Of a DNA stretch of 26,759 bases, positions 1 to 25,417 are shown one piece after another. Where the stretch lies: IMG/VR virus record IMGVR_UViG_2728369186_000003; one strand, written 5' to 3'. The DNA comes from a virus. Taxonomy: Duplodnaviria > Heunggongvirae > Uroviricota > Caudoviricetes. Position numbers and translations under genes: made by a program. The first letter of the stretch is position 1, and each line of letters opens with the position of its first letter. Under the pieces are notes generated by a model, which saw only the letters and a program-made list of their open reading frames with translations, did not search any database and was not told where the DNA came from.

Positions 1-624
1 TTCTGACGTTTTCGCGGCACTGGCACTGGTAGCTGCCGCGCTTTTTGAGGACTCTGCAGCAGCAGCACTTTTCGATGCTTCAGTGGCCTTTGTTGATGCC
101 GTTCCTGCGCTGGAAGATGCTGACTGAGCCGACGACGCGGCCTGTCCGGCTGACGTGCTGGCTGCGCGTGCTGAGCCTGCAGCATCAGTCGCATGGGTTG
201 CCGCCTCACGTGCTGATGTGCCGGCATCGCTGGCTGACTTCTTCGCGGCTGCCGTGTTCTGTGCCACCGCGGACGCGTTACGCGCCACCTCTTCCACCAT
301 CAGTTCAAAACGGCGCAGTGCCTCAGGACGGGCATCATCCTCCGTCATGGCACCGAGAAAATCATTCAGCGTACCGGGTCGGGAATCTTCATACACGGTG
401 ATGGTCCCGGCATGTGACGGCGGGAATCCCTCCACCAACAGAATAACGCTGTACTGCCCGTACTCAACGTCCATGCTGTAACGCCCGGCTTCATCCGGAT
501 TTTCTGAGGCCAGCGTGTTCACCACCACCGTGGTGCTGTTACGTTTTGCTTTCAGCTGGATTGTGCAGTTCTGTACCGGTTTTCCTGTGCCGTCTTTCAG
601 TACACCTGAAATCTTTACTGCCAT
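1..624 (-). CDS. stf: Side tail fibre protein, N-terminal portion (gene runs off the window start)
   Basis: Minus-strand ATG at 622-624 opens a frame translating MAVKISGVLKDGTGKPVQNCTIQLKAKRNSTTVVVN..., followed by Ala/Ser/Thr-rich low-complexity repeats. Recognised from memory as a lambda Stf-type N terminus. Frame is still open at position 1. Track ORFs 45-401 and 155-481 (+) are antisense to it. Confidence 0.75.
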   Translation of the reverse strand, partial: MAVKISGVLKDGTGKPVQNCTIQLKAKRNSTTVVVNTLASENPDEAGRYSMDVEYGQYSVILLVEGFPPSHAGTITVYEDSRPGTLNDFLGAMTEDDARPEALRRFELMVEEVARNASAVAQNTAAAKKSASDAGTSAREAATHATDAAGSARAASTSAGQAASSAQSASSSAGTASTKATEASKSAAAAESSKSAAATSASAAKTSE

Positions 625-635
625 ATTCACCCCAC

Positions 636-662
636 AAAAAAGCCCGCCTGAACCGGCGGGCT
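636..662 (-). terminator. Putative rho-independent terminator downstream of lom
   Basis: Plus strand reads AAAAAA-GCCCGCC-tgaacc-GGCGGGC; on the minus strand this is a 7-bp GC stem followed by a T6 run, 27 nt after the lom stop. Confidence 0.5.
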
Positions 663-688
663 GTCATAACACTGTGTTACCTGGCTAA

Positions 689-1288
689 TCAGAATTTATA
701 ACCGACACCCACGATGAAACCGTCAGTGCGCCAGTCACCACTGCCGGAGCCTTCATAAGCAATATCAATGGCCACGGATTCGGTCGGGTTAAACTGCACG
801 CCAGCCCCCCACGCCAGAGACGTGTTGCTGTGGCGACCGTCATCACTTCCGGTCAGCACATCGTGCTTTTTCCCCTTGTTGTCAGTTACGCGGAGATAAT
901 CCCCGGAGAAAGTCGACACACGGCTGTAAGCCACACCCGCCATCGCATACGCGCTGAACCATTCATTCACGCGCACAGACGGCCCCGCCATTACGCTGAA
1001 CCAGCGGTTACGAACGGAATCTTCATGCCAGCGGGTATCGCTGTAACGGGTCAGCTGGCGATTCTTGTCTCCTGCATAGCTGAATGACGTCACCAGCCCC
1101 AGTGTGTCCGTAAACTCATAACGGTATTTCACGTTAATCCCGTTCAGATCATCACTGCCGGGAACGTTCGTCCGGGCATGAAGATACCCCGCGCTCAGCG
1201 TGGACTGATGTTCAGACGCCCATGCAGGCGCACCGGATACGGCCAGACAAATGGCTGCGGACAAAATTGCTGCACAAACTTTACGCAT
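689..1288 (-). CDS. lom: Lom-family outer membrane protein (Ail/Lom/PagC/OmpX beta-barrel)
   Basis: 199-aa ORF MRKVCAAILSAAICLAVSGAPAWA... with a signal peptide, alternating aromatic beta-strand pattern and C-terminal ...GVGYKF typical of 8-strand OM barrels. Sits immediately after J as in lambda. Confidence 0.85.
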   Translation of the reverse strand: MRKVCAAILSAAICLAVSGAPAWASEHQSTLSAGYLHARTNVPGSDDLNGINVKYRYEFTDTLGLVTSFSYAGDKNRQLTRYSDTRWHEDSVRNRWFSVMAGPSVRVNEWFSAYAMAGVAYSRVSTFSGDYLRVTDNKGKKHDVLTGSDDGRHSNTSLAWGAGVQFNPTESVAIDIAYEGSGSGDWRTDGFIVGVGYKF

Positions 1289-1310
1289 AATTACCTCTCG
1301 CTTTTCTGCA

Positions 1311-1340
1311 ATAAAAAAGGCGTCATTCCTGACGCCCTTT
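1311..1340 (-). terminator. Putative rho-independent terminator between J and lom
   Basis: AAAAAA-GGCGTCA-ttcc-TGACGCC-CTTTATT; hairpin with A-run on one side and T-rich run on the other (could act in both directions), directly after the J stop at 1359. Confidence 0.45.
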
Positions 1341-1358
1341 ATTGGGGTTATAAATATT

Positions 1359-4300
1359 TCAACGAATACTGATGCCGGAAGCGGCTTTTTTGGTCACAAT
1401 CACCGTACAGTCGGTGATATTGCCTGCCCCCTGATTGCCTTTCTGGAAAATCTTAAACTCCAGAGTGACGCTTCCCCTGCCACTCGGCATATCAATAACT
1501 GCACTGTAACTACCGGGAATGGCCCCTTTAGTTTCTCTGGATGCGATTAATACGCCGTTTTTGCGAACTTCAAAACCATAACCCGTGTATCGCGTGCCTC
1601 CTGGGTTATTTCCGCTCCCCGGATCGTCATACGCTATACCGTTAAAAATAATGGGCGGAATAATAATCTGGCGGTCAAAGTTATGATCATCGCTGATGGT
1701 GACTGTAACCGTACCGTTTGGTGTTTCCGTGTTACCCCACGTACCGACTTTTTTCGGGAAGGCTTTTGATACAGCTTTAACGAAATCTCCTCTGACCTGG
1801 GTCGCCTCCAGCATGCCCTTAATCGTACAGTTCTGGTTAATCGTGACATTGTTGAGCGTTCCTGAGTTCGCATTCACACTGCCACTGATATCCGCATTTT
1901 TCGCCGTCAGTCTCCCGTCTGATGTCAGGGAAAATGCCGGAGGATTACCGCCGCTGGTAATGGTGGGGGCCGTCAGGCGTTTCAGGAACACTTCATTCAT
2001 GAATATCTGATCGCCCTGACCAACAAACATCGGCTTTGTGTTGCCATTCGCAGGATTAATCATCGCAATCCTGTCTGCTGCCAGCAGCACCTGACTCTGC
2101 ATGCCGTCAGGGGTGTTCTCAATACCGGCACCGATACCCGCAATATAAAGGCGTCCGTCCTGCATCTGCTGCAGCTTCACTGCCCACATGCTGTTCAGGT
2201 TATTATTTGTATCAACCTGAACCTTCTGTATCTGCTGGATCGCTGCACTCTGGTCTTCCAGTTTCTTATTGACGGTCTGTGTTATTTCATTGCTGACATC
2301 CGTTATGGACGTCCTGATTTCAGTCAGGTCAGGCGCAAGCTGACCGTTATCAATCTGCGTCCACAGCTCCTGAGCCAGATGGGTTTTCCCTATCTCGCCT
2401 TTGAAAAAATCCAGATAGCCTGATGCATCATCACTCGGCTGACCGACAGCCTCCACGAATGCCGATTTGCCAACGGTGTTCACACTGCGAACGTAAAAAT
2501 AATAATCATGGCCCGGTTTGATATTGATACTGGCGGCTATCCAGTACAGCGCCGTACCAAGATAGCGCGCTGTGGTTTCAACCTGCCTGATATCCGCAAT
2601 CCGCTTTTCCGAGAACCAGAACTCAAACTGTACCGTCGGATCATAAACCGCAAGATGCGGCGTGGCGGTTATCTGAAAATACCCCGGTGTCAGCTCAATC
2701 TGCGACGGCGCTGCCGGTGCGGCAATCCGGAACGATACCGATGCCGGATCGCCCTGCTGCCCCCACGCATTTACTGCCCGGACTGTCAGCCTGTAGTTCC
2801 CCAGCGCCAGTTGTGTGAAGCGGTATGTGGTTTCCGCCGTCCGGGCTGTGCTGACCAGCCGCTCACTGCCGTCATCCGCTGCCACGGTCAGGCGAAGCAT
2901 GAAACTCACGCCCTTCACCACCTTCGGCGTATCCCAGCGGGCCAGTACCTGATACTCCCCGCTGTCTGCGGTGACTTCGGCAGTCAGGTGCTGCACTGCT
3001 GGCGGCGTGACACCATTCACCGTGCCGCTCTGGTCGCCGTCAAAGTGCGCCCCGTTATCCACGATGGCTTCTTTTTCCGGTACATGCTGCACGGCAGTGA
3101 TGGCATACGTACCGTCATCGTTCTCACGGATACTCACGCAGCGGAACAGGCGCTGGCGCAGCGTCGGCAGCTTCAGCCCCCACACGCTGTATCCGGCAAC
3201 GCCGTCAGGAACACGGCTCACTTTTACCTTCACGCCGTCGGTGACGGACTGGGCCTCCACGCTGACCGGATTGCCACTTCCGTCAACCAGGCTTATCAGC
3301 GTGGTACCGGAGGATGGCAGCGTGATTTCACGGTCGAGCGTCAGCGTCCGGGTCTGGCTGTTCACCGCCAGCACGCGCCCGCCGGTGCTGATCCCCGCAT
3401 AGTCATCATCACAGATTTCAATGACATCACCTGGTACATGGCGAAGCCCTTCGGCACCCACGCTGAAGTCCACGGTCTGCGTTTCCAGCAGTTCTGTTTT
3501 AATCAGCCACAGCCCGGCGCGGTGTGCCTGCCCCCGACTGGTACAGCCAAAGGCATCCATCTTCGTGACGTTACGACCGTAACGGGCAATGGCCTGCGTG
3601 TCCTCCACAAGCTCTGTCGCCGTCTCCCAGCCGTTATCCGGGTCAATCCAGTTCACCTCAACGGCATTATGGCGGTCCTTCAGGGCGCTGAAGCTGTAGC
3701 GGAACGGCGCACCATCATCCGGCATCACCACATTACTGCGGTTATAGGTCCACACCTTATCCGACGGTCGGTCCTGCACGAACGTCAGCGTCTGCCCGTT
3801 CCATACCGGCATACAGCGCATCGCCGAGCAGAAATCACTGAGAACATCCCACGCCTTACGCTGTGTGGTCAGCCAGGCATTACAGGTGATGCGCGGCTCC
3901 GTGCCGCCAAAACCGTCCGGCACCGACTGGTCGCAACACTGGCCGATGACATACAGCGCCCATTTATCCACATCTGCCGCACCAAGACGTTTACCCATGC
4001 CGTAGCGCGGGTGGGTCAGCATATCCCACAGACACCAGGCCATGTTGTTGCTGTATGCTGGCTTAAACGTTCCGTCCCAGATACCGCTGTATTGCCGCGT
4101 CTGCGGGTTATAGTTCGACGGCACCTGCAGAATGCGCCCGCGCAGATGATAATTACGGCTCACCTGCTGGCTGCCGAACTGCTCCGAATCCACCTGCACG
4201 CCGACCAGTGCCGTGTTCGGGTAGCACTGTTTCACATCGATGATTTCGNNNNNNNNNNACGCCCGCGAAGATGATAATTACGGCTCACCTGCTGGCTGCC

Positions 4301-4981
4301 GAACTGCTCCGAATCCACCTGTACGCCGACCAGTGCCGTGTTCGGGTAGCACTGTTTCACATCGATGATTTCGGTGTATGACGACCAGAGCGTTTTGTTC
4401 TGCAGCTGGTCTGTGGTGCTGTCCGGCGTCATCCTGCGCATCCGTATATTGAACGGGCGCGGCGGCAGGTTACCCACCACCACCGAGGCCAGATACTGTG
4501 AGGTGGTTTTGCCTTTAATGGTGATGTCTTTTTCCGTCACCCAGCCACCGTTACGCTGTATCTGAACCAGCAGGCGGACTTCCGACGGATTCCGGTCCCC
4601 CTTTGAGGTGGTTTCCACCAGTGCCTGCACGCCGAAGGTAAAGCGCAGACGGTCGATGTTTGCAGACGTAATGGTGCGGGTGATCGGCGTGTCATATTTC
4701 ACTTCCGTACCCAGCACCGTCTCGGAGCCGGAGGATTCAAACCCCTCCGGCGGTGTCTGCTCCTGCTCACCGGCACGGAACACCACCGTGACACCGGAGA
4801 TGTTGGTATTCCCCTCAGTGTCCAGCACCGGCGTACTGTTCAGCAGCACGCTTTTTAATCCATCCACCGGACCTTCAACCGGCCCTTCGCTGATGGCATC
4901 GATCACACTCAGCAACTGCGTGGACTTCAGGTTGTCCTTCGCTTCGCGCGGAGTATGCCCCTTACTGCTGCCTTTACCCAT
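1359..4981 (-). CDS. J: Tail tip / host specificity protein J (central tail fibre), interrupted by a 10-N gap at 4250-4259
   Basis: Track ORFs 4232..4981 (249 aa, [18 protein letters not shown]...) and 1359..4235 (958 aa) are the N and C parts of one J-like protein. Both carry the peptide [36 protein letters not shown] because about 110 bp is repeated on each side of the gap with 2-3 mismatches. Size (about 1170 aa after removing the overlap) and position after gene I match lambda J. Frame across the gap is not trustworthy. Confidence 0.8.
4250..4259. other. Run of 10 N (assembly/scaffold gap) inside gene J
   Basis: Literal nnnnnnnnnn; sequence 4140-4249 is almost identical to 4261-4380. Confidence 0.95.
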
Positions 4982-5003
4982 TCCTCACGCTCCATAAACG
5001 ACA

Positions 5004-5023
5004 AAACCGCCCGGAGGCGGTTT
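5004..5023 (-). promoter_or_regulatory. Hairpin in the I-J intergenic region, just upstream of the J ribosome-binding site
   Basis: AAACCGCC-cgga-GGCGGTTT is a perfect 8-bp stem. On the minus strand it is followed by TGTCGTTTATGGAGCGTGAGGA then the J ATG. Could be an attenuator/terminator or a translational control structure. Confidence 0.35.
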
Positions 5024-5041
5024 CACATAAAACGTTTTTCA

Positions 5042-5687
5042 TCAGCGACCAATCACCACAACCTGACCACCGTCCCCTTCGTCTGCCGTGCTGATCTCCT
5101 GAGANNNNNNNNNNCGCGCATTTCCCCGTACAGAACAGGCAGAACATTGCCCTGGGCAACCATGTTATCCAGTGAGGAGAAATAGGTGTTCTGCTTACCG
5201 TTATCCGTTGTCTGTGTACGGGGAGTTCTGGCTTTCGGTGCCAGCATCTGCGCCACACCACCGAGCACCATACTGGCACCGAGAGAAAACAGGATGCCGG
5301 TCATACCACCGGCCCCAATGGCTGCCCCCCATGCTGCAAGGGTGGCTCCGGCGGTAAAGAATGATCCGGCAATGGCGGCAGCCCCCAGGACAATCTGGAA
5401 TACGCCCCCTGACTTGGCCCCGGCGACTCTGGGAACAATATGAATCACAGCGCCATCAGGCAGAGTCTCATGTAACTGCGCCGTTAACCCGGACGTGCTG
5501 ACGTCCCGCCCGGCAATCCGTACCTGATACCAGCCGTCGCTCAGTTTCTGACGAAACGCCGGGAGCTGTGTGGCCAGTGCCCGGATGGCTTCAGCCCCCG
5601 TTTTCACACGAAGGTCGATGCGGCGACCAAATCGTTGTAAATCCCCGTAAAGGCAGATGCGCGCCATGCCCGGTGACGCCAGAGGGN
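5042..5687 (-). CDS. I: Tail assembly protein I, lambda-like allele (N terminus lost in gap at 5688-5697, internal gap at 5105-5114)
   Basis: Between the gaps the minus strand encodes PLASPGMARICLYGDLQRFGRRIDLRVKTGAEAIRALATQLPAFRQ...NVLPVLYGEMR. After the 5105-5114 gap it continues SQEISTADEGDGGQVVVIGR with a TGA at 5042-5044. This matches my recollection of lambda gpI closely. Confidence 0.7.
5105..5114. other. Run of 10 N (assembly/scaffold gap)
   Basis: Literal N run; the roughly 90 bp following it (5115-5205) nearly repeats the sequence following the 5688-5697 gap. Confidence 0.95.
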
Positions 5688-5697
5688 NNNNNNNNNC
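5688..5697. other. Run of 10 N (assembly/scaffold gap)
   Basis: Literal N run separating two diverged copies of the gene I coding sequence. Confidence 0.95.
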
Positions 5698-6264
5698 GCG
5701 CATTTCACCGTACAGAACGGGCAGAACATTGCCCTGGGCAACCATGTTATCCAGTGACGAGAAATACGTGTTCTGTTTGCCGTTATCTGTACTGGCTGCC
5801 GTGGGCGTCCTGGCTTTCGGTGCCAACATCTGCGCCACACCGCCCAGGATCATACTGGCCCCTGCCGCATACATACCCGATACAGCCGTGGCCCCCAGCC
5901 AGCCCACAGGGTTCCACCATGCAACCGCAATCAGCGCCGCCCCCAGCACTGCCTGAAAAATACCGCCACTTTTAGCACCCGCCGGACGCGGTACGATGTG
6001 GATCACGGCACCATTTTCCAGCGGCTCATTAAGACGGGCAGACAATTCAGTTTCACCTGCATCACGCCCGGCAATGCGTACCTGGTACCAGCCGTCGCTC
6101 AGTTTCTGACGAAATGCCGGGATCTGCATGGCCAGCGCCCGGATGGCTTCGGACCCCGTTTTCACTCGAAGGTCGATGCGGCGGCCAAATCGTTGTAAAT
6201 CCCCGTAAAGGCAGATGCGTGCCATGCCCGGTGACGCCAGAGGGAGTGTGTGCGTCGCTGCCAT
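5698..6264 (-). CDS. I: Tail assembly protein I, divergent allele (C terminus truncated by gap at 5688-5697)
   Basis: ATG at 6262-6264; MAATHTLPLASPGMARICLYGDLQRFGRRIDLRVKTGSEAIRALAMQIPAFRQ...YGEMR. Same family as the copy at 5042-5687 but with many substitutions in the central Gly/Ala-rich segment. Contiguous with gene K upstream. Confidence 0.7.
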
Positions 6265-6921
6265 TTGTCGGTGTACCTCTCTCGTTTGCTCAGTTGTTCA
6301 GGAATATGGTGCAGCAGCTCGCTGTCACCACAGTAAATGGCGGCATGATTCGGCACCGATGAACCAAAACAGCACAGCAGCACATCGCCCGGCTGCGCCG
6401 CTGACAACGGCACCTGATACAGCCCTGTGGCCTCCAGATTATCCAGATAGAGATTCTGACCGTGACGCCACCAGTCATCCTCGCGATGAAAATCCGGCAT
6501 CTCAATCCCCGCCAGATGGTAAGCATCCCGGAACAGCGTGTAACAGTCCGTCACCCCGTGCTCAAAGCGCCGCCCGGAAAGATGTGGCACACAGCGGAAC
6601 TTGTGAATCGCCCCCCGGCAAACCAGCCACCACGGCAAATCACTCTGCACCTGCAGCCGCCGGTCGGTCTCACTCAGCCAGGGCAGACCACCGGGGTGGC
6701 TGTGGACCAGCGCCACAATCTCACCCTGNNNNNNNNNNCTCTGCCCGCAGCCAGTCCTCCGGCGACATCCGGAAATACTCCTCCGGCTCACCGGAGATAT
6801 TCACGCAGGGAAAATATCTTTCCCCCTCCGGTGTTCTCACCACGAAGCCGCACGACTCCGCTGGCGCACATCGCCGGGCGTGCGCCAGAATCGCTGATTC
6901 TGTCTCTGTCATGGGATTCAC
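6162..6921 (-). CDS. K: Tail tip assembly protein K (JAB/MPN plus NlpC/P60-like), spanning the gap at 6729-6738
   Basis: Track ORFs 6721..6921 (MNPMTETESAILAHARRCAPAESCGFVV...) and 6162..6791 (...QGEIVALVHSHPGGLPWLSETDRRL...GVTDCYTLFRDAYH...). The HSHPGG...S..D JAMM-like motif and Cys/His NlpC-like motif are as in lambda K. ATG overlaps the L stop (ATGA). Confidence 0.8.
6729..6738. other. Run of 10 N (assembly/scaffold gap) inside gene K
   Basis: Literal N run; flanking codons (...WLRAE / QGEIVAL...) suggest only a few nucleotides are actually missing. Confidence 0.95.
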
Positions 6922-7616
6922 TGCGAAAGTTTGTTAATGGAAAGGAAGCCGCCAAAGTTGCCGACGTTATTGCGAAACTTACAGCCGCTCAGGCATTTGC
7001 TGCATTTATCCTTCGTGATATCGGACGTCGGCTGATCATATTCATCCGCGACCGCCGGACCGTGATAACCGCACTCATCACCGCGATAGGTCCAGGTGCA
7101 GGTGTTGGCCAGCATGATACGTCCCGGAAAAACGGCACCGTCCGTTTCCGTCGGCGTGGACAGTACAAAAGAGGCACTGACCGCGCTCAGTTCGCTGCAC
7201 TGCTCGATGCGCCAGCGGCTGATCACCTCCTGCTCCGGATCGGCTTCGCTGTTTCCGTTGACGAAGTTCACCGCATCCAGAAAGCGGGCGTAAACCTTAC
7301 GCCGGACCACCGTTCCGCCGACCAGACTCTGCAGATCTTCCGCCATCCCGGTGATCATGCCGTGCAGGTTAGAGACCGTCAGTGTCGGACGGGCAGCACT
7401 GCCCTTGCCGTTCATCTCAAATCCACTCCCCTGAATGGGATAGGCCTGATACTGCCGACTCTGCCAGGTGACAGACTCACCTTTTTCGTTCTGCTCATTA
7501 CAGAAAAAGTAGCGATCCCCGCCTACCTCGGTCAGGTCGATTTCCCAGAGCACCACGCTGGCCGACTGCTCCGCACGAATGCATTCATTCAGCGTTTCCT
7601 GTTGTATGTCCTGCAT
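6918..7616 (-). CDS. L: Minor tail protein L
   Basis: 232-aa [45 protein letters not shown]... with C-terminal Cys cluster (CTWTYRGDECGYHG...CSKCLSGCKF) like the Fe-S-binding region of lambda gpL. Position between M and K. Confidence 0.85.
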   Translation of the reverse strand: MQDIQQETLNECIRAEQSASVVLWEIDLTEVGGDRYFFCNEQNEKGESVTWQSRQYQAYPIQGSGFEMNGKGSAARPTLTVSNLHGMITGMAEDLQSLVGGTVVRRKVYARFLDAVNFVNGNSEADPEQEVISRWRIEQCSELSAVSASFVLSTPTETDGAVFPGRIMLANTCTWTYRGDECGYHGPAVADEYDQPTSDITKDKCSKCLSGCKFRNNVGNFGGFLSINKLSQ

Positions 7617-7954
7617 CAGATCACCACTTCGTCAAACTGACACGAAAAATCGGTATAGGTGATATGTTCTGTCGCTGACCACGTTCGACACACCACTCTG
7701 ATTTTTCTGTTAATACCCGGCGGGCGCCAAAAAAAAGATTTATAGCCTTCATGCCGGGCTAAAAATTTTTCAAATGAATCACGTTCATTCGCCTCAACTT
7801 TGAAATCACAGGTGAAAACGCGCAGAGAATGATTAAGTCCATTTGGACTTCGTTGCTCATAACCATCGCCAAATCTTACAGTTTTTATCGATGGTTTATT
7901 TTCTGTTTTCATTCCATCCTCTGGTAACCAGTGAAATTCTTCCGTATTAGCCAC
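7616..7954 (-). CDS. M: Minor tail protein M
   Basis: 112-aa ORF containing [16 protein letters not shown]...FFWRPPG...[10 protein letters not shown], recognised as lambda gpM-like. Overlaps the tape measure stop by 8 nt and the L start by 1 nt. Confidence 0.75.
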
Positions 7955-10900
7955 TTAATATTCCCCCATCACGTCGCATATTTAACAGATTGCCCTGCAC
8001 CCGCTGATCAACCATCCCCATAAGTGCTTTTATTGCCTGAGGGCCAATCTCTCCATTCTGGCCGTCATTTTGAATAGTGATTTGGTATACAGGGGCATAG
8101 GTAATATCTCCGCCTCCATTACCACTTTTACTATTAATAGCTCTGACACCAAGAGAACCATCGGAAGTTCGTGTTAATGGCATAATGGCTTCCGGTCCAG
8201 CCTCACCAAAAACACCAGCCCCTTTTGCAAAAGCAAAAAATTGCGGGGAATCATAAATACCGTTCGAATACGTGCTCAATGACGGAGACTCATAAACACC
8301 GCCCTTTGCATTCGGAATAAATTTACTAATAGCACTCCCGATAGTTCCTAAAATCCCCCCAGAAGAACTGTTACTAATGCTGTCGAAAATCCCAGTAATT
8401 GAAGCCTTTAATGCCATTCGACTAAGATCCGAAATCACGGAAGTAGCGAAAGAACGAAAATTTGCCTTGCCTGTCGTGACAAAATCACCCAGCGCATCGG
8501 TCATCCCATCAAACATCTGAGTCGTGGTTGATTTTATCTGCTCACTGATATCCTTAGTGTCATCCAGCCAGTTATTGAATCCCTGGGAGGCACCACTAAC
8601 CCAGTCTCCTGCCTGAATATCGAGCTGCTCGTTTTTCTGTCTGACAATTTCTTTTTCCCGTTCCAGAGCATCATTCAGAGCCTGCATTTTCTCTTGAAAA
8701 ACATGATCTGACATTCCACGGGATTTATCTGCATAGTCACGTTCAAGTTGCAGACGCTGATTGTTATATCCATGTTCAATCCGCAGTAATTCCTGCTGGC
8801 GTTGCTGATTTTTATCGCCAACCCCATAACCAGCAATCTGAATATCATACCCCTGCTGACGATTATCAATCGAAGCCTGCAATGAATCACGCCATGCTGT
8901 TATTTCGGCGGATTCCTTGATTAGCCTGTTATTCTTTTCAATCGCAACATTTTTCTCCATCAACGCGGTTATTTCTTCCCGGTGTAAGAGAAGCGATTTC
9001 TGATCCTGGGTTAATTTCGATGATGGTCGTGACTCTAGGTCGGCAATCCGCTGACGCCACTTAACCAGTTCCTGTTCAGAGGAACTTAATTTAACGGTCA
9101 ACTCAGCTTGTGAACTTAGTAACGCATTCTGTTGATTCAGATGATCAATCATTCGTTGGGCTGCATCATCAGAATAACCTTTCGCCTTTGGTTGCTTTGG
9201 ATCTTTATAACGCTCATTTATTTGAGCGATAAGATTATTATATTCTTCCTTTGAATACTGATTCTTTAGCTTTTCCAGTTTTGCAAGTTCACTAGCTCTC
9301 TGCTGCTCCCGGGTCTGATATTGTTTTGAAAAGGCATCTGCTCTCTGTCTGAGTTCAATTCCTTCCTGTTGTCGCTTGTTGTAATCGTTTATTGATGAAT
9401 TTAGTACGTCCTGAGCAATTTTTTCTGCTTGAAGTACGCCCAATTGCTGCTTTAATCGTGCCAGCCTTTTATTTTGAGCTCCGCCATCTCCAATGCCACC
9501 TAACCCGAAAACTCCGGGTCGGGTATTTTTTTCTATTTCATCAATTTGACGGAGAACATCTGAGATTTTTTGATCAAGGGAGGCCTCACGGCCAATATCC
9601 AGCATGGAATCCCATGCCCATTTTGCGGAGTCTGCGACAGCTTTCCATGCAGTCTCAAGATAACCAAGATTTTCTTTAATCTGGTTGGTGCGCTGGATCA
9701 TTGAGGATGAGTATTCTTCTGTCGCAATGCGGGCGGCCTCCTGCTGGTTCCCTTCATCCTGTAGCGCCTTAATCTGGTTATAAGTCGCAAGTGTCAGAAA
9801 ATGGTACTGATCATTAAGTTTTGATATGGCACTGACAGGATCCTTTGCAATTTCATTGAAGTCATTAACCAGTTGTTCGGTTGATATTCCTGTTACTTCG
9901 CTCGTTTTTACTATCGCTGTCGTCACTTGCTCCAGCGAACTGCTCGCTACCTTTCCCGAACGCACAAGCTGATTTAATACTGCCGCCGCAGCACCAGTTG
10001 TCGAATCAGCCGCATTCCCGGCACGTTGAGCTATATCGCCCAATTGCCCGCTGGTTGTCCCCAACTGATTTCCGGTAAGAATAAGAGATTTATTAAATTC
10101 GTCCTGCTCCTGAGAGCCTTTATAGTAAGCCAGTCCTAAGACCCCAACGGCTGCTGCGGCCAGGGTAAAAGGATTAATTAATCCCAGCACATAAGAACCT
10201 ACACCTTTGATCGCCGGGCCAATCCCACCGAACATATCTTTTAGCTGGCCGCCCTGCTGCATTAACACCATAAATGGCGACTGACCAGTGGACAACCCAA
10301 CAACAATATCCGTCATTTGTGCAGGCAACATGCGCATAGCAAAAGCCGTTTGTTTTGCCGACATTCCGGTTTTGCTTAATTGTGATTGAGTAACCTCAAG
10401 CTCACTCCGCATAGCACGAAGTTTTCCAGAAAGCTCCTCATACATTTCAGGAGAAAGCATCCCCTTAGCTTTTGCTTCATTGAGCTGTTTCTGTTGTTCT
10501 ACCAGACGATTAAAAGCAGTTCCGACAGGATCAAGTTGAGCAATCAGACGTTGCAAAGCAACAACCTGTTCATCATGCGCTTTTGCTGCTTCTCGCTCTG
10601 CCTGAGCCTCTCCGGTAAGCTCTCGCCGTGTTTCCTGTATTTTTCGGCTATAATTCTCAAACTGAGAACCATTTATTTTCCCGGATGCAAACGCAGCATT
10701 AAGTTCATCATGCTGTTGTTCAAGATTTCTTAGCGCCGCAGCCAGAGGGTCGATCTTGTCCAGCATTCTTTGAAAGGCCTGAGCCTGCGCTTCCTGCTGG
10801 GCGGCAGCAAGTTTTCCGGCCTTCTCGGCTTCTCTCTGCGCTTGCGCAACCCCGCTCAATTCCTCTGTGGTTTCATTAAGTTTACGGACAAGAAATTCAT

Positions 10901-13922: not shown

Positions 13923-14306
13923 TTACGCTCTCCTTAACTGGATAGAGTAAACTGATGCGGAAGGATCTACACTTGCTGTAATTACCTCGTATCGTTGTAA
14001 CTGCCTTGATACAGGATCATAAATCTCAATAATATGGTCGACAGCTGGTTTATCCGTAACCTCGCATACCAGAGCGGTTAATTTAAGGTCACCATGCAAA
14101 ATATTAATCCCATCAATTCTGCCCAGCTTATAACGTGTCAACACGCCTCGCCCGGTATAGATTGCGGTGGATTCGCCGCCAGTTTCCGTCACAGGATCCC
14201 AGTGCCGGTGCGTAACGTAAGAACCAGAAAAATCACTCACGGCGTCCGCTAAATCCTCATCAAAAGCAGCGGCAACCTCTGACTGAATCTCTTCACGAAG
14301 CCCCAT
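13923..14306 (-). CDS. Head closure / head-tail joining protein, putative
   Basis: 127-aa ORF tightly packed between neighbours; position in the connector block. Confidence 0.4.
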   Translation of the reverse strand: MGLREEIQSEVAAAFDEDLADAVSDFSGSYVTHRHWDPVTETGGESTAIYTGRGVLTRYKLGRIDGINILHGDLKLTALVCEVTDKPAVDHIIEIYDPVSRQLQRYEVITASVDPSASVYSIQLRRA

Positions 14307-14701
14307 TATCCCCCCCTCACAACCCTGACTTGTGAGCGACTAAGTCCGTACGGTTTCAGCAGTGCTATCGCAAGCTGTAAATCGGGTTCAAGCAATGCAG
14401 TGCTGTTTGCTGGCAACTCAGAAAATGATTTCGATACACTGACCCCGTCAGCCGACACGGCTTTACTGATAACAACGCCAGAATCATTTTTCTGCTGAAA
14501 CAACTTACCGAATGAGGCAATTCTGGCTGCATATGCTCCCGCAAGTTTTACCTCTTCAGGAATACGGGATGGGTTAATTTTCAGGTTGAAGCCATTAAGC
14601 CAGGCATTAGCCATTAAAACAGCTTTATTTTTAGCGTTCTCACTCGTCCAGGCGTTCCCAAACGCATTATCAACGTCATCACAGGTCACGTAAGTGATCA
14701 T
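14306..14701 (-). CDS. Head-tail adaptor / connector protein, putative
   Basis: 131-aa ORF MITYVTCDDVDNAFGNAWTSENAKNKAVLMANAWLNGF...; first gene of the connector block after the capsid gene. Stop overlaps the next start. Confidence 0.4.
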   Translation of the reverse strand: MITYVTCDDVDNAFGNAWTSENAKNKAVLMANAWLNGFNLKINPSRIPEEVKLAGAYAARIASFGKLFQQKNDSGVVISKAVSADGVSVSKSFSELPANSTALLEPDLQLAIALLKPYGLSRSQVRVVRGG

Positions 14702-14704
14702 GTG

Positions 14705-14881
14705 TTACTCCTGAGTTTTCCAGCCCATAGCCTTCCAGTTGTCAACTTCATCAGGATGAACATTAGCGATAGTTGGTGCGCCGGGAAACATCTGATAATC
14801 GGTCACCATAACCACTAACTCAATTTGCGTTTTTTGTGCGGCTTCACGCTGTGCTCTTTGCTCTTTAGTTAATCCGGCCAT
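14705..14881 (-). CDS. Small hypothetical protein (58 aa), absent from the ORF track
   Basis: Minus-strand ATG at 14879-14881 to TAA at 14705-14707 encodes MAGLTKEQRAQREAAQKTQIELVVMVTDYQMFPGAPTIANVHPDEVDNWKAMGWKTQE. It fills the gap between the capsid terminator and the connector gene. G-rich stretch upstream but no strong SD. Confidence 0.35.
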   Translation of the reverse strand: MAGLTKEQRAQREAAQKTQIELVVMVTDYQMFPGAPTIANVHPDEVDNWKAMGWKTQE

Positions 14882-14890
14882 ATGCCCCCC

Positions 14891-14913
14891 ATTAAAAATG
14901 GGGCCGAAGCCCC
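14891..14913 (-). terminator. Putative rho-independent terminator/attenuator downstream of the major capsid gene
   Basis: Minus strand reads GGGGC-TTCG-GCCCC followed by ATTTTTAAT (GNRA-like tetraloop, 5-bp GC stem, T-rich tail), 11 nt after the capsid stop. Confidence 0.55.
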
Positions 14914-14923
14914 GTTTGAATGT

Positions 14924-16063
14924 TTAACCAAGAATCAGACAACCATGTGCCGGCTTCACTGATGAAACACCCCATGCCAGTCCAACTTCATAGCGCACCT
15001 GGCGATACTGACGATACAGTGCAATCTGGAACGTAATCCCTGAAATCGGGTCCGTAACATTCATTACATCATCAGCATTATCGCCACCTTCCGGCATTGC
15101 CGGAGTACGGGATGCCAGCAGAAACGCGTTGCGATCAAACGCCATATTTGCAGTAAAGGCCCCAACAACTGTGATGGCAGTATCATCGGCCAGATCCTGA
15201 CGCAGTCCGGGCGCTGCAAGAGTAATCAGATTGCTGGTCGCTGCTGCCACAACATACTGATTCGGATCACCAGCGAACGTAACAATCTGACCTGCAGAAA
15301 TACTCCCCGAACCAGTATCAATGGAAATAAGAACATCGCCTTCTTTTTTCTCTCCATTCACGAGATAACCAGTTGCAGCAACCTTTGGCGCTCGTTTCAC
15401 ACCTGCCGAACTGTGAATATTGAATCCCTCCAGACGCCCCAACACGCCCTCACGCAGTAGCTGTTCAGTGCCGGATTCATTCACTTTAAACAATACAGAC
15501 TGTTTTCCGCGCAAATTAGCAATGGCAGTGGAGCCAAGCACCATCTGCAGATCGGTTGTCGGTGCGCCGTTATCCTCCAGAACCTGACGAGCCAGAGCAG
15601 CATCAGAAAGATCATCTTTAACACCAAACGGCGTTGTCCCTGCGGTTCCCACGGCGCGGGAAGCACCGAAATACAACGCACCAAGATCAGCCTCAACCTC
15701 GTTTGCAAGGGCGCGAAAAGCCTGCTTGAACTGATCAGCCAGAATGGTGTTGTAAGTCCCTGAAGGGCCAAGAGCCAGTTGTTCTTCACCATTCCATTTA
15801 ACCGGTGCCATTTTGGATTTAGTAATTTTTACATCAACAGTGCCAATATTTTGATCACCGGTATTCGGAGCTGACGGCCCCGGTACGATATCTTCGGTTT
15901 TCGCCTCAGGCGCAACTGGCGCGGTTACCGTCTGATCTTTTGCTGCGGCGTCAGCTTTTGCGTTTTTTGCTACCGCAGGGATAAAACCTACCTGCTCACG
16001 GGATACAACATCCAGGGCGGTATAAATAGTCGGGATCAACCCGGTCAGGGTATTTCCAGCCAT
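14924..16063 (-). CDS. Major capsid protein
   Basis: ORF 14924..16156; preferred start is the ATG at 16061-16063 (MAGNTLTGLIPTIYTALDVVSREQ...) preceded by AAGGAA. About 379 aa. Lies after the scaffold gene and before a strong hairpin, the usual capsid position. Confidence 0.7.
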   Translation of the reverse strand: MAGNTLTGLIPTIYTALDVVSREQVGFIPAVAKNAKADAAAKDQTVTAPVAPEAKTEDIVPGPSAPNTGDQNIGTVDVKITKSKMAPVKWNGEEQLALGPSGTYNTILADQFKQAFRALANEVEADLGALYFGASRAVGTAGTTPFGVKDDLSDAALARQVLEDNGAPTTDLQMVLGSTAIANLRGKQSVLFKVNESGTEQLLREGVLGRLEGFNIHSSAGVKRAPKVAATGYLVNGEKKEGDVLISIDTGSGSISAGQIVTFAGDPNQYVVAAATSNLITLAAPGLRQDLADDTAITVVGAFTANMAFDRNAFLLASRTPAMPEGGDNADDVMNVTDPISGITFQIALYRQYRQVRYEVGLAWGVSSVKPAHGCLILG

Positions 16064-16161
16064 AATTAAATATTCCTTAAAAATTTGCGTAATTGTGAAT
16101 AGATGGAGTAATGAGCTATCCAGCCCTGACACCAGCTCCCATCCGGAAGCTGACAAATGTG

Positions 16162-16926
16162 TTAATCAACAATTGTGATACCGTCTTTCAATGCGTTTTG
16201 CTTACCTGCAACATCCAGTGCATCAAAAGCAGAGCGTTTCATCGTTTTCTGACCAACATCATGCTGTGTCGGACGGGAGCCGCCGCCATTGTTGCCACTG
16301 GCTTTCAGGATGTAGTCTTTCTGAGGGTAATTTTCGACGAGGAACTCCAGCGCCTCATCAAACTGCGCCAGTTCGCCAGGCTTCGCGCGGGAATAAATTT
16401 TGTTGCCGGAAGCGTCATAAGCAACGATCTTCCCTTCTTCCACTTTGAATGCCTGCCCGAAGCGGGCTTGTAATAAATCTGCCGGGATCGCAATTTTATC
16501 GGCAATATATTTTGAACCCGCAAAACTACCGCCAATCATAGAATCGTAAAGCTGCGTCTCCAGCATCTGAGAGCGTTGCTTTTCTTCATCTAATTGCTGC
16601 TGAAAATTTTTCGTAATTTCTGCCTTAACCTGGTCAACCTGTCCCGCATCGATCAGCTTTTTCTGGTCGATTTTTGACAGCATTTCCAGTGCCTCGATCG
16701 CCTTCTTCGGGTCTTCGATAGCGGCAAACTTAGCCAGTTTTTCCTCTGCAGCTTCTTTAGCCAGGCGATGATTTTTTGCCTCGCCATTAAGCTCTGTAAT
16801 TTTTTTTATCGCCAGCGGTGCATCGAAGCCGATTTCTTTACCATCGTCGTGCACATAAACTGGCAGGCCAGCAGTATCAATTTCTGCGTATTGTTTTCCG
16901 TTAATCTCGACCGTTTTCAGTTTCAT
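16162..16926 (-). CDS. Scaffolding protein, putative
   Basis: ORF 16162..16998 begins at a GTG; the first ATG with an upstream AGGT is at 16924-16926 (MKLKTVEINGKQYAEIDTAG...). Central charged helical/coiled-coil region (EEKLAKFAAIEDPKKAIEALEMLSKIDQKK...QQQLDEEKQRSQMLETQLYD). Position directly upstream of the capsid gene. Confidence 0.55.
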   Translation of the reverse strand: MKLKTVEINGKQYAEIDTAGLPVYVHDDGKEIGFDAPLAIKKITELNGEAKNHRLAKEAAEEKLAKFAAIEDPKKAIEALEMLSKIDQKKLIDAGQVDQVKAEITKNFQQQLDEEKQRSQMLETQLYDSMIGGSFAGSKYIADKIAIPADLLQARFGQAFKVEEGKIVAYDASGNKIYSRAKPGELAQFDEALEFLVENYPQKDYILKASGNNGGGSRPTQHDVGQKTMKRSAFDALDVAGKQNALKDGITIVD

Positions 16927-16986
16927 ATTAGTACCTGGTTTAAGTCTTCCGACAGTTACGCTGCTCACCATCCGGATCGCAGCAAT

Positions 16987-17010
16987 AAAAAAGGCCACCC
17001 GAAGGTAGCC
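16987..17010 (-). terminator. Putative terminator/attenuator between head morphogenesis and scaffold genes
   Basis: Minus strand reads GGCTACC-TTCG-GGTGGCC followed by TTTTTTATT (7-bp stem with one G-U pair), 20 nt after the stop at 17031-17033. Confidence 0.45.
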
Positions 17011-17030
17011 TGTTGTAATAAATGATTTAT

Positions 17031-18146
17031 TTAAATCCCTGCTTTTCTGAATACCTGTGCATCACGCTCACGGAGTTGCTTCAGCGTCAGCCATTCGCCT
17101 TTATCGGTGTAAAATTCATCTGGCGACATACCGCCATCCCGAATCAGCTTTGCCCGGGTTTCCCCCACAATCTGTTTTTGTCTGGTGTAAGGCTGACGCA
17201 AAAACCATTCCCTGTAGGTTGTATCTCCGGCCACCACGCCATCCATGCTGGCCCGCTCAGCCGGGGAAATATCACGAACATCAATACCCAGTTCCTTCGC
17301 TGATTTCAGAATGAACGTTTCCGTTGAGCGGCAGCAGAAATGAATTTTTCCCGGCCCATGCAAATAAGGCACACTGTGACCTACAGGTTTATTATCCAGC
17401 GTATATTTGAGGCGATCCCTGATTCGACATTGTGGCGTAGTACGATTATCAAGCGTTGATAACCATTGCTTACCCTTAATCAAATCATTATTCGCGCTGG
17501 CAAAACTCTCACGGGCAGTAGCAGCAAGATGTCCAACCGCTGTTTTTGCAATGCTGGCCGCATTAGCCCGGCTCATCTGCAATGCACCATCCTGAAATCC
17601 CTTGCTGACATGTCCCCGAATTTTTCTTGCGATCTGCTCATTGGTATCCCCCAGCAAAAAACCCTGACGCACCGTATTTGTTATGCGTCTGAGCCGATCC
17701 GCCTCAAGATCCAAGGCCCACTCACTGAGCAGTCGTCCCTGGAATGGTCGCGCCATTGCAGCGGCGTAAAGTGCATCAGAAGATATACCAACCAGAGGGT
17801 GAACATCAGCAACAAAATCAGGTAGCAGAGAATCAAACAGACTTAACTGATAACCAGCCTCATAAATTGCCAGCTCGTTCAGCTCTCCGGAGAGACTGGT
17901 AAACATGCTGTTAATAGCAGCGCGGTTAACCTCTCTGACACTCGCCAGAAGTGACTCTAGGCGCGTAACGGTAAAACTACCAGGATCGAGGCTGTCCAGT
18001 GCTACCAGCAGGCGAGCTGTAAGCTCCGCATCGCTGTCATTCAGTATTTTCACCATTCTGGCAGCCACACCAGTGCTATAGCGGGATATCCAGACTGCAT
18101 GAGCAATTGATTCATCACGCAGCCGTTCATTCACGGTTTGCATCAT
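17031..18146 (-). CDS. Head morphogenesis / minor head protein (Mu gpF / SPP1 gp7-like), putative
   Basis: 371-aa ORF directly downstream of the portal gene, overlapping its end by 20 nt. Assigned by synteny (terminase, portal, MuF-like, scaffold, capsid). Confidence 0.55.
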   Translation of the reverse strand: MMQTVNERLRDESIAHAVWISRYSTGVAARMVKILNDSDAELTARLLVALDSLDPGSFTVTRLESLLASVREVNRAAINSMFTSLSGELNELAIYEAGYQLSLFDSLLPDFVADVHPLVGISSDALYAAAMARPFQGRLLSEWALDLEADRLRRITNTVRQGFLLGDTNEQIARKIRGHVSKGFQDGALQMSRANAASIAKTAVGHLAATARESFASANNDLIKGKQWLSTLDNRTTPQCRIRDRLKYTLDNKPVGHSVPYLHGPGKIHFCCRSTETFILKSAKELGIDVRDISPAERASMDGVVAGDTTYREWFLRQPYTRQKQIVGETRAKLIRDGGMSPDEFYTDKGEWLTLKQLRERDAQVFRKAGI

Positions 18147-19533
18147 TGATTTCCATCAACATTACACTCTGATTTTTTAATTCATCGATCACATCCTCTG
18201 GACGGGAATCCTGATCGATAAATTTCAACGCCTGCAACACCCGAACCGCATCAATCTGACGTATATCACCGCCCTGACGCAATGACTGAACAGCCAGCGC
18301 GGAGGATGAGTCAAACACCTGGGCAGATACATCCAGTTCAGTGCGCACATCCACATTGCCACCGCAACTCTCTCCGCTCCATTCCGCCATTATCTGGAGA
18401 ATATTATCGAGGGCATCTTCGAGGGAGTTCGCCATTGTATAAAGCGGCGAGTGTTCCTGCATCCGCTCTTCATTAGTCTGATCAACAGATTTGGTGGATG
18501 TATTTTCAGCCCGCAGAAGTTTAGCGCCGGCATGACGCATCTGATTTTCCAGCTTCTCAAGTGATGTTTCGCCAGATTCTATCGCTGCGCCACTATGTTC
18601 AACATATTCGAGGCCATTTTTTGTTCTGTCCTCAAAAATCGTAGCCGTGGATGCACCAACCGTCAGTTCTTCATTCCTGTCCAGCCCGTAGGCCACCAGC
18701 AATGGAACGCGGGCAACATGAAGAATATTGTCCTGCTCGCTCTGGCTTTGCCAGTGCTTGATATTCAGCAAGCCAAGATTAAGCAATGGCGGTGTACCAC
18801 GCATAAACCCTGTTTTCTTCGTATACAGTGTTACCAGAGGAATATCATCACGGCTGGTATTCCATGACTCATGAAGCATCCAGACAGATTCGCCATTAGT
18901 ACCTTCGCTGCGTCGATAAATTTCTACTCGACGGGGCATAATATGGCGGATCTGCTCCACCTTCTTCTGCCCGAAATCATCACCATCAATAATGATGACC
19001 TCTTTTATACGCAAATCAGTGAGAACAACTTTCCCTTTTTCAACTTTCGATTTCCATCCAATAACCTGGCGTGGATTCAGCATCGTAACGTACGGGCGAC
19101 CACCGGCCGCGTTTTCATCGGCTTTTGTCCGAATCTCGTTCATATCCGTTCGTGGATAGTCCACCAGCGCATGTGCCACACCATACTGAAATGCGAGACT
19201 GAAAAATTGCTGCGCCCACACATCCAGTCGGCTCCCCTCCATGTCGATATTTTCTGCATATTCCCTGATTTTTTCCGGCGTTTCCTCACTCAATACTGTC
19301 GGCTCTGCAAATATGCGCCCAATATTTTGTTTGATGCTTTCTTCATACACAGGAAGTAACGTAGCCACAGACAGGCGTTTTTTATAAGCGTCTTCATCTT
19401 CATTAGGCCATTTGGGGAGATAATTTTCCCCCTGCCTGCGCATTTCAAGCGTACCGCCCATCAATGCGTCGTTAATATCCCACGCCTCCAGCATATCGTT
19501 ATAGTCGAGGTTGGGTGTTGATATATCAGCCAT
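18127..19533 (-). CDS. Portal protein
   Basis: 468-aa ORF starting 2 nt after the terminase large subunit stop. Size and position typical of portal proteins; acidic C-terminal tail. Confidence 0.7.
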   Translation of the reverse strand: MADISTPNLDYNDMLEAWDINDALMGGTLEMRRQGENYLPKWPNEDEDAYKKRLSVATLLPVYEESIKQNIGRIFAEPTVLSEETPEKIREYAENIDMEGSRLDVWAQQFFSLAFQYGVAHALVDYPRTDMNEIRTKADENAAGGRPYVTMLNPRQVIGWKSKVEKGKVVLTDLRIKEVIIIDGDDFGQKKVEQIRHIMPRRVEIYRRSEGTNGESVWMLHESWNTSRDDIPLVTLYTKKTGFMRGTPPLLNLGLLNIKHWQSQSEQDNILHVARVPLLVAYGLDRNEELTVGASTATIFEDRTKNGLEYVEHSGAAIESGETSLEKLENQMRHAGAKLLRAENTSTKSVDQTNEERMQEHSPLYTMANSLEDALDNILQIMAEWSGESCGGNVDVRTELDVSAQVFDSSSALAVQSLRQGGDIRQIDAVRVLQALKFIDQDSRPEDVIDELKNQSVMLMEINDANRE

Positions 19534-23959: not shown

Positions 23960-25417
23960 TTAGGAGCGCCAAAAAAAACCTGAAAACAATATAATAACAG
24001 GATAAATTTCAAGGCGACCAAGAATCATAGCTATGCACATTAAATATTTTGCAATGTCATTAAGCACTCCGAATGACGATGCAGTAGCCCCAAAACCTAA
24101 TCCCATATTATTAATACATGCAGCCACTGTTGCAAATGATGTAAGAAAATCATATCCCATACCATTTAACACCAGTATAAAAAACACCGTGAAGAGAGTA
24201 TAAAGAAAAAAGAAACTCCATACAGACCTCATTACACGATCTGTAACTATCTTCCCTCCTACATTTACACTCAACAACGCTCTGGGATGAGAAAGCTGAT
24301 TTATCTCGTGTTTGCTTTGTTTGAAAAGTATAAGAAATCGAAGTGACTTAATTCCACCACAGGTTGAACCTATACATCCCCCAAAGAAACTTGACAACAG
24401 CAAAAACACTATCGTGTGCGTGGGCCAGTTTGCATAATCCTGCGTAGCTAAACCATTATCAGTGAGCATGGAGCTGGCAAGAAAAAACGAATGAATAAAA
24501 CTTCCATGCAAGTCATACATACCTATATGCCAGACCTGGAAAGAGGTAACAATGATCACCCCTAAGGCTATTAACAGAAAGAAACGAAGTTCAATATCTC
24601 TGATTAAAGGTTTTATCGTTTTTCTGCTAATAACAATATACCAAAGAGTGAAGTTGAAAGCCGATAGCAGGGAAAAAGAACCAGCCACCAGCTCAACCAA
24701 ATAGTTATTAAAATATCCGATACTCTCGCTATGAGTTGAGAAACCACCAAGCGAAACTGTGGAAATCCCGTGACAAATAGCATCAAACAAAGGCATTCCT
24801 GCAAGTCTATAACAGACAATACAAGCAATACCTAATAAAGAATAAGTTATCCACAGTGTCCGTGACGTATCGGCCAGGCGGGGAGTGAGTTTGTCATCCT
24901 TAAATGGCCCCGGCATTTCTGACTGATAAAGCTTTGCACCACCAATACCCAATAATGGCAATACTGCAACCGCCAGAACAATAACTCCTAAACCACCTAT
25001 AAAATTTAACTGTGACCGATAGTACAAATATGCCCGAGGTAATGAACTAACATCATCAATTACAGTTGCTCCTGTTGTTGTTATTCCAGAAACCCCTTCA
25101 AACAGAGCATCAATGAACGTTAAATTAAGTTCTGAGTCAAACCATAAAGGGAATGCACTAATAACAGAAAACAAAATCCAAAACATTACAATTATAATAA
25201 ACCCATCACGGGTACGTAATTGAATGCCAGATTTCTTAGTTGTATACCACGCTCCGCCACCAATGCAAAAAAATATAACGAAAGTTATAAAGAAAACGAA
25301 CAGGCTTTTTTCTTTATAAAACAATGCTACAACCATTGGTGGCAACATTGAAAGACTATAGAGCCAAACCAGGAACCCACACATATGAGTAACAACTCTT
25401 ACATGAGATGTATTCAT
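23960..25417 (-). CDS. trkG: TrkG/TrkH-family potassium uptake membrane protein
   Basis: The track ORF (23960..25435) begins at a TTG; the first ATG is at 25415-25417 (MNTSHVRVVTHMCGFLVWLYS...), giving 485 aa. Many hydrophobic helices and repeated GxG-type selectivity-filter-like motifs (TTTGAT, LGGFS, GSTCGG, NMGLGFG). Recognised as E. coli Rac-prophage TrkG from memory. The gene is strikingly AT-rich compared with flanking phage genes. Confidence 0.85.
   Translation of the reverse strand: MNTSHVRVVTHMCGFLVWLYSLSMLPPMVVALFYKEKSLFVFFITFVIFFCIGGGAWYTTKKSGIQLRTRDGFIIIVMFWILFSVISAFPLWFDSELNLTFIDALFEGVSGITTTGATVIDDVSSLPRAYLYYRSQLNFIGGLGVIVLAVAVLPLLGIGGAKLYQSEMPGPFKDDKLTPRLADTSRTLWITYSLLGIACIVCYRLAGMPLFDAICHGISTVSLGGFSTHSESIGYFNNYLVELVAGSFSLLSAFNFTLWYIVISRKTIKPLIRDIELRFFLLIALGVIIVTSFQVWHIGMYDLHGSFIHSFFLASSMLTDNGLATQDYANWPTHTIVFLLLSSFFGGCIGSTCGGIKSLRFLILFKQSKHEINQLSHPRALLSVNVGGKIVTDRVMRSVWSFFFLYTLFTVFFILVLNGMGYDFLTSFATVAACINNMGLGFGATASSFGVLNDIAKYLMCIAMILGRLEIYPVIILFSGFFWRS

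Follow-up and report, generated by a model that had tools for sequence, protein, structure and literature searches.

Comparison of a 26,759-nucleotide Caudoviricetes record (IMG/VR IMGVR_UViG_2728369186_000003; the whole stretch is referred to here as the window) with Escherichia coli prophages indicates that positions 4134–6738 are very probably a scaffolding artefact, and that the apparent duplications of the tail-tip genes J, I and K within them reflect a problem of assembly rather than biology. The window contains exactly four runs of N, each of 10 N, at 4249–4258, 5105–5114, 5687–5696 and 6729–6738; the first-pass annotation had found all four at this length, although two of the positions that it gave (4250–4259 and 5688) were each off by one. 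These gaps split the window into contigs A–E and lie within lambda-type tail-tip genes J, I and K, all on the minus strand. Every duplication boundary abuts an N run, the adjoining repeats being 4134–4248/4259–4373 and 5115–5686/5697–6244. With lengths of 114–183 nt and identities of 86–98%, such repeats cannot have arisen by chance. Rfam and tRNA scans of the window returned no matches.

Contig A (1–4248, minus strand) carries the N-terminal part of a side tail fibre gene (~1–624), lom (689–1288) and the C-terminal 963 codons of J (1359–4247), with the Pfam domains Phage-tail_3, Ig_J, Phage_Tail_Tip and Ig_GpJ_C. Across gap 1, contig B (4259–5104, minus strand) holds the start and first 241 codons of J (4981 down to 4259; domain FNIII-A_GpJ), the J–I spacer and the 3′-terminal 63 nt of I (5042–5104), with gene coordinates transferred from annotated homologues. 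Contig C (5115–5686, minus strand), enclosed by gaps 2 and 3, comprises most of a lambda-type I allele, including the 3′-terminal 80 nt of a K gene. Contig D (5697–6728, minus strand) opens on codons 1–189 of a second I allele (6264 down to 5697) and continues through K, from its stop at 6162 to 6728 (domains Lambda_tail_I, NLPC_P60 and Prok-JAB). Contig E (6739–26759, minus strand), annotated from strain 1585m1, adds the 5′ end of K (to 6912), L, M, a 1077-aa tape measure gene and tail genes, together with P22-like head genes, terminase, trkG and lysis genes. As scaffolded, the two I alleles appear as an artefactual fusion ORF of 403 aa (5053–6264, minus strand) that passes through gaps 2 and 3.

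At gap 1, the final 115 nt of contig A (4134–4248, minus strand; J codons ~204–241) recur at the start of contig B (4259–4373) with 3 mismatches, in keeping with an earlier report of near-identical flanks, except that the duplicated part of J amounts to 38 aa and not 36. Mapped on homologues, A likewise overlaps B by 115 nt. The differences, at positions 4134, 4143 and 4197, are all three synonymous. Because the variant at the end of A matches 1585m1 prophages exactly, while that at the start of B is exactly of the EC11 type, the two ends represent different natural J alleles, and hence two copies of J exist.

Homologues also supply the true distances at the joins: −115 nt from A to B, +17 nt from B to C or D, and +3 nt from D to E, in place of which the window has uniform 10-N spacers. 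Since these distances are unlike 10, the N runs are placeholders. On every homologue, contigs C and D begin at one and the same coordinate, and gap 3 joins contigs that cover the same interval. At gap 2, homologues have 17 nt, GACCACCCGCGACCCCA or AACCACGCGAGACCCCA, and substituting 10 N for them shifts the frame, so that the I C-terminus SQEISTADEGDGGQVVVIGR falls in another frame across the gap; gap 4, inside K, corresponds to 3 nt (CAT). The equal length of all four runs might suggest that they simply mask, in place, 10 real bases of correct sequence, a reading that is scarcely credible and that we regard as refuted, given that flanks separated by −115, 17 and 3 nt on homologues, or covering a single interval at gap 3, are not collinear with them. 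Deleting the overlap and contig C, and inserting the 17 nt and CAT, restores J, I, K and L as intact genes of 1165, 215, 247 and 232 aa, the sizes annotated in homologues. The earlier caution that the frames of K, I and J are unreliable was thus well founded: the breaks are there, and undoing the joins mends them.

The block between gaps 2 and 3 had been described as 573 bp encoding I residues 8–197; in lambda gpI numbering the residues stand, and the length is 572 nt. A diverged second copy of I beyond gap 3 had been proposed too, and it is present at 5697–6264 (codons 1–189 of its own allele, aligned to lambda gpI residues 1–197), with 74.5% protein identity to the first. The quoted contrast of SEAIRALAMQIPAF with AEAIRALATQLPAF can be found between the copies, their hydrophobic cores also differ, and both blocks do open with the shared bounding sequence CGCGCATTTC[C/A]CCGTACAGAAC. 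Both score above the 23.8-bit cut-off of the Lambda_tail_I profile (PF06805), at 100.2 bits for C (E 8.8e-29) and 88.6 bits for D, and comparison with lambda confirmed the K–I–J order of these Lambda_tail_I genes. Contig C is 99.48% identical in nucleotides to the I gene of phage lambda (189 of 190 aa), with three mismatches to the lambda reference, and 100% identical to six complete natural E. coli genomes. Contig D has 98–99.1% identity to Rac-locus prophages, its I being 100% identical to APEC O2-211 and its K to 1585m1.

Strain 1585m1 contains counterparts of both: a lambda-like prophage at 2.855 Mb has a K/I junction 100% identical to C, and a Rac-locus prophage at 2.178 Mb, 677 kb away, is 99.97% identical to E over 20 kb and has a D-type I. 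Over its 20,021 nt, contig E is 99.97–100% identical to many complete genomes and, judged by this match, is a Rac-locus prophage. A single I lies between K and J at all 16 finished-genome loci fetched and, of the eight draft or metagenome loci spanning K to J, at seven. Among 4,195 covering records, the 15 best-matching ones align to a 4,001-nt query over 3,318 nt, the length expected of a single copy. The J–I–K module itself occurs in a median of 2–3 copies per E. coli genome (maximum 14). The first-pass proposal, that a scaffolder had set a contig from a different prophage (C) in tandem here, is supported by the 100% match of C in the lambda-like 1585m1 prophage and by the single I elsewhere; contig C is an extra, misplaced copy of I.

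These comparisons also bear on whether the window might depict a real structure, with two tandem diverged I genes, a J containing an internal 115-nt duplication, and N runs that hide short stretches. As all the junctions are N, the letters of the window alone are compatible with it. Yet every duplication boundary falls exactly at an N run, with continuous sequence over none of the duplication junctions; the second copy would have to begin within a K 3′ fragment, at I codon 8, and stop at codon 197, with J and K frameshifted; and the copies in the overlap carry different natural alleles, as would be expected of two separate genes more than of one recently duplicated. The 15 best complete-genome matches show the single-copy span, and a tandem I or duplicated-J arrangement was absent from all 24 loci inspected. 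We therefore consider a real structure highly improbable, and doubt to the same degree the specific form in which a lambda-type and a Rac-type I stood in tandem beside a duplicated J in the sequenced culture, perhaps as a recombination intermediate of two resident prophages.

Contig C could instead have come from outside the genome, either as DNA of a second strain or as laboratory lambda present in the library; its 99.48% identity to phage lambda and the restriction of the lambda-type allele to 572 nt of the window speak for this. We judge it improbable: a second J allele is revealed independently by the A/B overlap, and most E. coli genomes already carry 2–3 copies of the module. Laboratory lambda in particular is an unlikely source, since C has three mismatches to lambda and matches natural E. 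coli chromosomes perfectly.

The scaffolding explanation leaves the question of which alleles belong together. The first-pass annotation had called the I allele of this prophage unknown, and here a partial answer can be given: D is contiguous with K and its type of I occurs in the seven Rac-locus prophages examined, whereas C is lambda-type, so that D is most likely the I allele belonging with contig E. The left end of the window may, however, derive from a prophage other than that of the right end. Contig A has its best complete-genome matches (99.2%) in three att-lambda (bio–ybhB) prophages with a lambda-type 190-aa I, against only 91–95% identity to Rac-locus prophages; these attachment-site relatives, together with the differing natural J alleles at the end of A and the start of B, suggest that the left end is possibly foreign. 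Full-length matches to B and D among 5,426 complete genomes reach at most 98.8% and 99.1%, respectively, and none is exact; the local sequence would therefore be a new mosaic of natural origin or else a partial chimera, a point that tells against the artefact explanation. In genome_contigs, neither an exact pattern spanning gap 1 nor an allele-specific pattern from contig D had a match.

If the scaffolding explanation is accepted, one version of it would make the window a chimera, with gap 3 as the seam between two prophages: A, B and C (stf–lom–J–I, lambda-type) would form one lambda-like prophage, and only D and E would come from the Rac locus. C would then stand where it belongs beside A and B, and the 5.7 kb at the left of the window would be foreign to the 21 kb at its right. 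Besides the three att-lambda matches of A, eight of nine intact loci combine the exact Lom of A with a lambda-type I and an 853–859-aa tape measure, and in none of the nine does this Lom stand beside the 1077-aa tape measure of E; five genomes with E at 99.97–100% have A at only 91–95% and B at 96.2–96.7%. On the other hand, the three differences in 115 positions between the end of A and the start of B mean that A to B is no simple continuation either, and A and C never occur together at high identity in one reference: where A is at 99.2%, C is at 96.5%, and where C is at 100%, A is at 95–96%. The A-type J, found with a lambda-type I at 99.2% identity, also adjoins a 215-aa I, at 98.4%, in prophages at ssrA and prfC. 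An A-type J thus neighbours both types of I: the module moves freely between prophages, and what it is linked to in other strains says little about its linkage here. We regard this chimera as possible but doubtful.

The preferred reading, of contigs wrongly set side by side, can be given a plausible course. The source would be an E. coli draft genome with at least two lambdoid prophages whose J–I–K–L tail-tip modules are 85–100% alike, a multi-copy stretch that the assembler would have broken into short contigs where the copies diverge. These contigs may then have been strung together by software for scaffolding or contig ordering that put 10 N at each join, leaving overlaps unmerged and alternatives unrecognised. 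Joining A to B in this way would repeat 115 nt of J drawn from two different J alleles, and contig C, an I allele from a lambda-like prophage elsewhere, would come to lie beside D, its counterpart over that interval. The locus itself would most likely read J, I (D-type, 215 aa), K and L, free of duplication. That the second prophage shares this genome, and what type of software made the joins, are inferred.

Paralogous prophage sequence in E. coli is reported to be beyond the resolution of short reads (PMC5359411). Mis-scaffolding of such prophages from short reads resembles what is seen here in that breaks fall at or near allele-discriminating sites of a module present 2–14 times per genome, and in that an alternative allele stands in tandem behind an N spacer of fixed length; we find no difference in kind. 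Contigs B and E start exactly at a polymorphic base; C extends 24 nt beyond the last site at which it differs from D, and A extends 51 nt beyond the last at which it differs from B. The starts of C and D, 10 nt before the first C/D difference, are not on a clean k-mer boundary, which we count against the artefact explanation. No single assembler k-mer size fits these contig-end distances.

Set beside phage lambda (NC_001416: K 14276–14875, I 14773–15444, J 15505–18903), the window has the same gene order L–K–I–J, the same 103-nt K/I overlap (here between the I start at 6264 and the K stop at 6162) and matching Pfam families (Lambda_tail_I, NLPC_P60/Prok-JAB and GpJ domains). It differs in that the K-linked I of D is only 74.6% identical to gpI and 8 residues shorter in the Gly/Ala-rich hydrophobic core, and homology ends at the L/M boundary. 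Rac-locus E. coli lambdoid prophages (order ompN-uspF-ydfK-pinR-tfaR-stfR ... trkG), for example those of 1585m1, ZF8-1, ij001, fEC.1 and HB-Coli0, show 99.97–100% identity to E over 20 kb, a K identical to that part of D, and I, K and J in single copy. Their I nevertheless differs from that of D at 20–21 sites, and their J, lom and stf are only 91–97% identical to A and B, differences which suggest that the tail-tip module of the source is another natural mosaic or comes from another prophage.

As scaffolded, the window would lead a gene caller to annotate pseudogenes, to list I twice and to divide the host-range protein J. J is the determinant of receptor specificity, so host-range prediction or prophage typing based on positions 1–6740 could mix the alleles of two prophages. 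The matter is one of data quality and not of new biology: finished E. coli genomes commonly show both I alleles as well as mosaic exchange of tail-tip modules.

The window contains exactly four N runs of 10 N each (4249–4258, 5105–5114, 5687–5696 and 6729–6738; gaps 1–4), in agreement with the first-pass annotation as to number and length, although two of its positions were off by one. These runs separate contigs A (1–4248), B (4259–5104), C (5115–5686), D (5697–6728) and E (6739–26759). Comparing each contig with homologous loci in finished chromosomes and phages, we found the same picture every time: contigs A and B share a 115-nt overlap, the end of B lies 17 nt from the start of C and D, which share an identical homologous start coordinate, and the end of D lies 3 nt (CAT) from the start of E. 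The runs are therefore placeholders, neither measured gaps nor in-place masks, and all four sit where contigs overlap, compete for one interval or nearly abut. Masking in place by N is refuted by the non-collinear flanks. Contig ends lie at or near allele-discriminating sites: B and E each begin exactly on a polymorphic site, and C ends 24 nt beyond its last difference from D, just within a ~100-nt stretch identical across all alleles examined. The 17 nt absent at gap 2 (5105–5114) form a small hypervariable patch in I with both flanks invariant; Rac-locus prophages have GACCACCCGCGACCCCA there, lambda-type prophages AACCACGCGAGACCCCA or AACCACACGTGATCCCA.

A repeat finder reported three pairs in the window: 4135–4248 with 4260–4373 (98% identity), 5105–5280 with 5687–5862 (86%) and 5504–5686 with 6062–6244 (93%). 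Examined base by base, the 115 nt common to the end of A and the start of B, which duplicate 38 residues of J, carry three differences (4134, 4143 and 4197), all of them synonymous. Both prophages of Escherichia coli 1585m1 (one at the Rac locus, the other lambda-like) match the final 237 nt of A exactly, and the EC11 prophage does so for the first 240 nt of B; the overlap differences are therefore no random errors, and two natural J alleles are present. Contig C translates to residues 8–197 in the numbering of lambda gpI, while the second I copy, on D, comprises codons 1–189 of the D allele, aligning to gpI residues 1–197. The duplications and diverged I copies noticed earlier from the bare sequence are thus borne out overall, with small corrections: the two I proteins are 74.5% identical, differ as had been quoted (SEAIRALAMQIPAF / AEAIRALATQLPAF), and have different Gly/Ala-rich cores.

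All genes of the region lie on the minus strand and, by Pfam matches and annotated homologues including those of phage lambda, make up a lambda-type tail-tip module: a side tail fibre N-terminus (~1–624), lom (689–1288), J (start 4981, stop 1359), I (start 6264, stop 5042), K (start 6912, stop 6162) and L (6918–7616), then M and a 1077-aa tape measure. K and I overlap by 103 nt, as in phage lambda. Lambda nucleotide homology stops at the L/M boundary (~7640), and GC content falls from ~57% over 1–7000 to ~44% over 8000–10000; in the interval ~7616–8000 the lambda-like tail-tip module thus gives way to a module of different tail and P22-like head genes. The whole window yielded no tRNA or tmRNA gene, nor any Rfam match at the gathering threshold.

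As scaffolded, J falls into two frames (249 and 958 aa), K carries a frameshift, and a 403-aa I–I fusion frame crosses two gaps. When the A/B overlap and contig C are cut, and gaps 2 and 4 are filled with the Rac-locus 17 nt and 3 nt, the reading frames of J, I, K and L run without a break for 1165, 215, 247 and 232 aa, respectively, matching the lengths given in finished-genome annotations. A true tandem duplication of I with an internally duplicated J is compatible with the sequence inasmuch as the junctions are N, but it would require each of the junctions to coincide with an unsequenced position and frameshifts in both J and K, and the arrangement occurs in none of the comparator loci; we regard it as extremely improbable. 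Of 4,195 complete-genome records that cover a 4,001-nt query (3600–7600), the best 15 all span 3,318 nt, which is the single-copy length. A single I lies between K and J in all 16 finished-genome loci fetched; of the eight loci from drafts or metagenomes that span K to J, seven show it too. E. coli genomes carry a median of 2–3 copies of the J–I–K module (maximum 14), and short reads are reported to be unable to resolve multi-copy repeats of this kind in E. coli prophages (PMC5359411).

Many complete genomes contain a Rac-locus prophage, set beside ompN-uspF-ydfK-pinR-tfaR-stfR at one side and with trkG within, that contig E matches at 99.97–100% identity over 20,021 nt. Here the potassium transporter gene trkG (23960–25417) lies between the terminase-side genes and the lysis genes (25555–26728), a position that typifies the Rac prophage locus. 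In fEC.1, EC_J_9, GF75, HB-Coli0 and others, an IS3-family transposase insertion breaks these 20 kb; it is absent here. Contig D, running physically unbroken from I into K, is 98–99.1% identical to the I–K region of the Rac-locus prophages matching E. Contig C matches phage lambda at 99.48% identity and six complete E. coli chromosomes at 100%. In one of these, 1585m1, the match sits within the lambda-like prophage at 2.855 Mb, whereas the Rac-locus prophage at 2.178 Mb equals E and carries D-type I; this arrangement gives direct comparative support to the earlier suggestion that C derives from another prophage, and indicates that D probably carries the I allele belonging with E. Laboratory lambda contamination is an unlikely source of C, which differs from lambda at three positions and matches natural chromosomes exactly.

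The window's left end may also come from a different prophage than its right end. Contig A is only 91–95% identical to Rac-locus prophages where E is 100% identical, and its top three hits (99.2%) are att-lambda prophages carrying lambda-type I, that is, lambda-like prophages at the bio/ybhB site and not at the Rac locus. In eight of nine intact loci elsewhere, the exact Lom protein of A is found in linkage with lambda-type I and an 853–859-aa tape measure. The scaffold may therefore have fused two prophages at gap 3, with A, B and C all on the same side of the join; we nevertheless hold this reading doubtful, since prophages located at ssrA and prfC also carry A-type J at 98.4% beside I genes of 215 aa, A and C occur together at high identity in none of the references compared, and A and B are different alleles within their own overlap.

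Neither B nor D has an exact full-length match among 5,426 complete genomes (best 98.8% and 99.1%, respectively). Contig B equals EC11 exactly over 4259–4498 and 4560–4914, its differences being grouped at 4499–4559 and 4915–5039, and may represent an uncommon mosaic, or else two copies collapsed into one consensus. Contig D is itself a mosaic, matching at 100% the APEC O2-211 and C2 type in its I part (5697–6463, to the APEC O2-211 Rac-locus prophage) and the 1585m1 type in its K part (6116–6728, to the 1585m1 Rac-locus prophage), the switch falling inside a 348-nt stretch identical in the APEC O2-211 and 1585m1 types. Either natural recombination or chimerism of the contig could account for this pattern.

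The region thus holds no novel biological feature, and the original flag is a correct and useful quality warning on an ordinary assembly artefact: J, I and K coordinates, frames and allele assignments in 4134–6912 are not to be trusted, and the linkage of 1–5686 to 5697–26759 should be treated as unproven.
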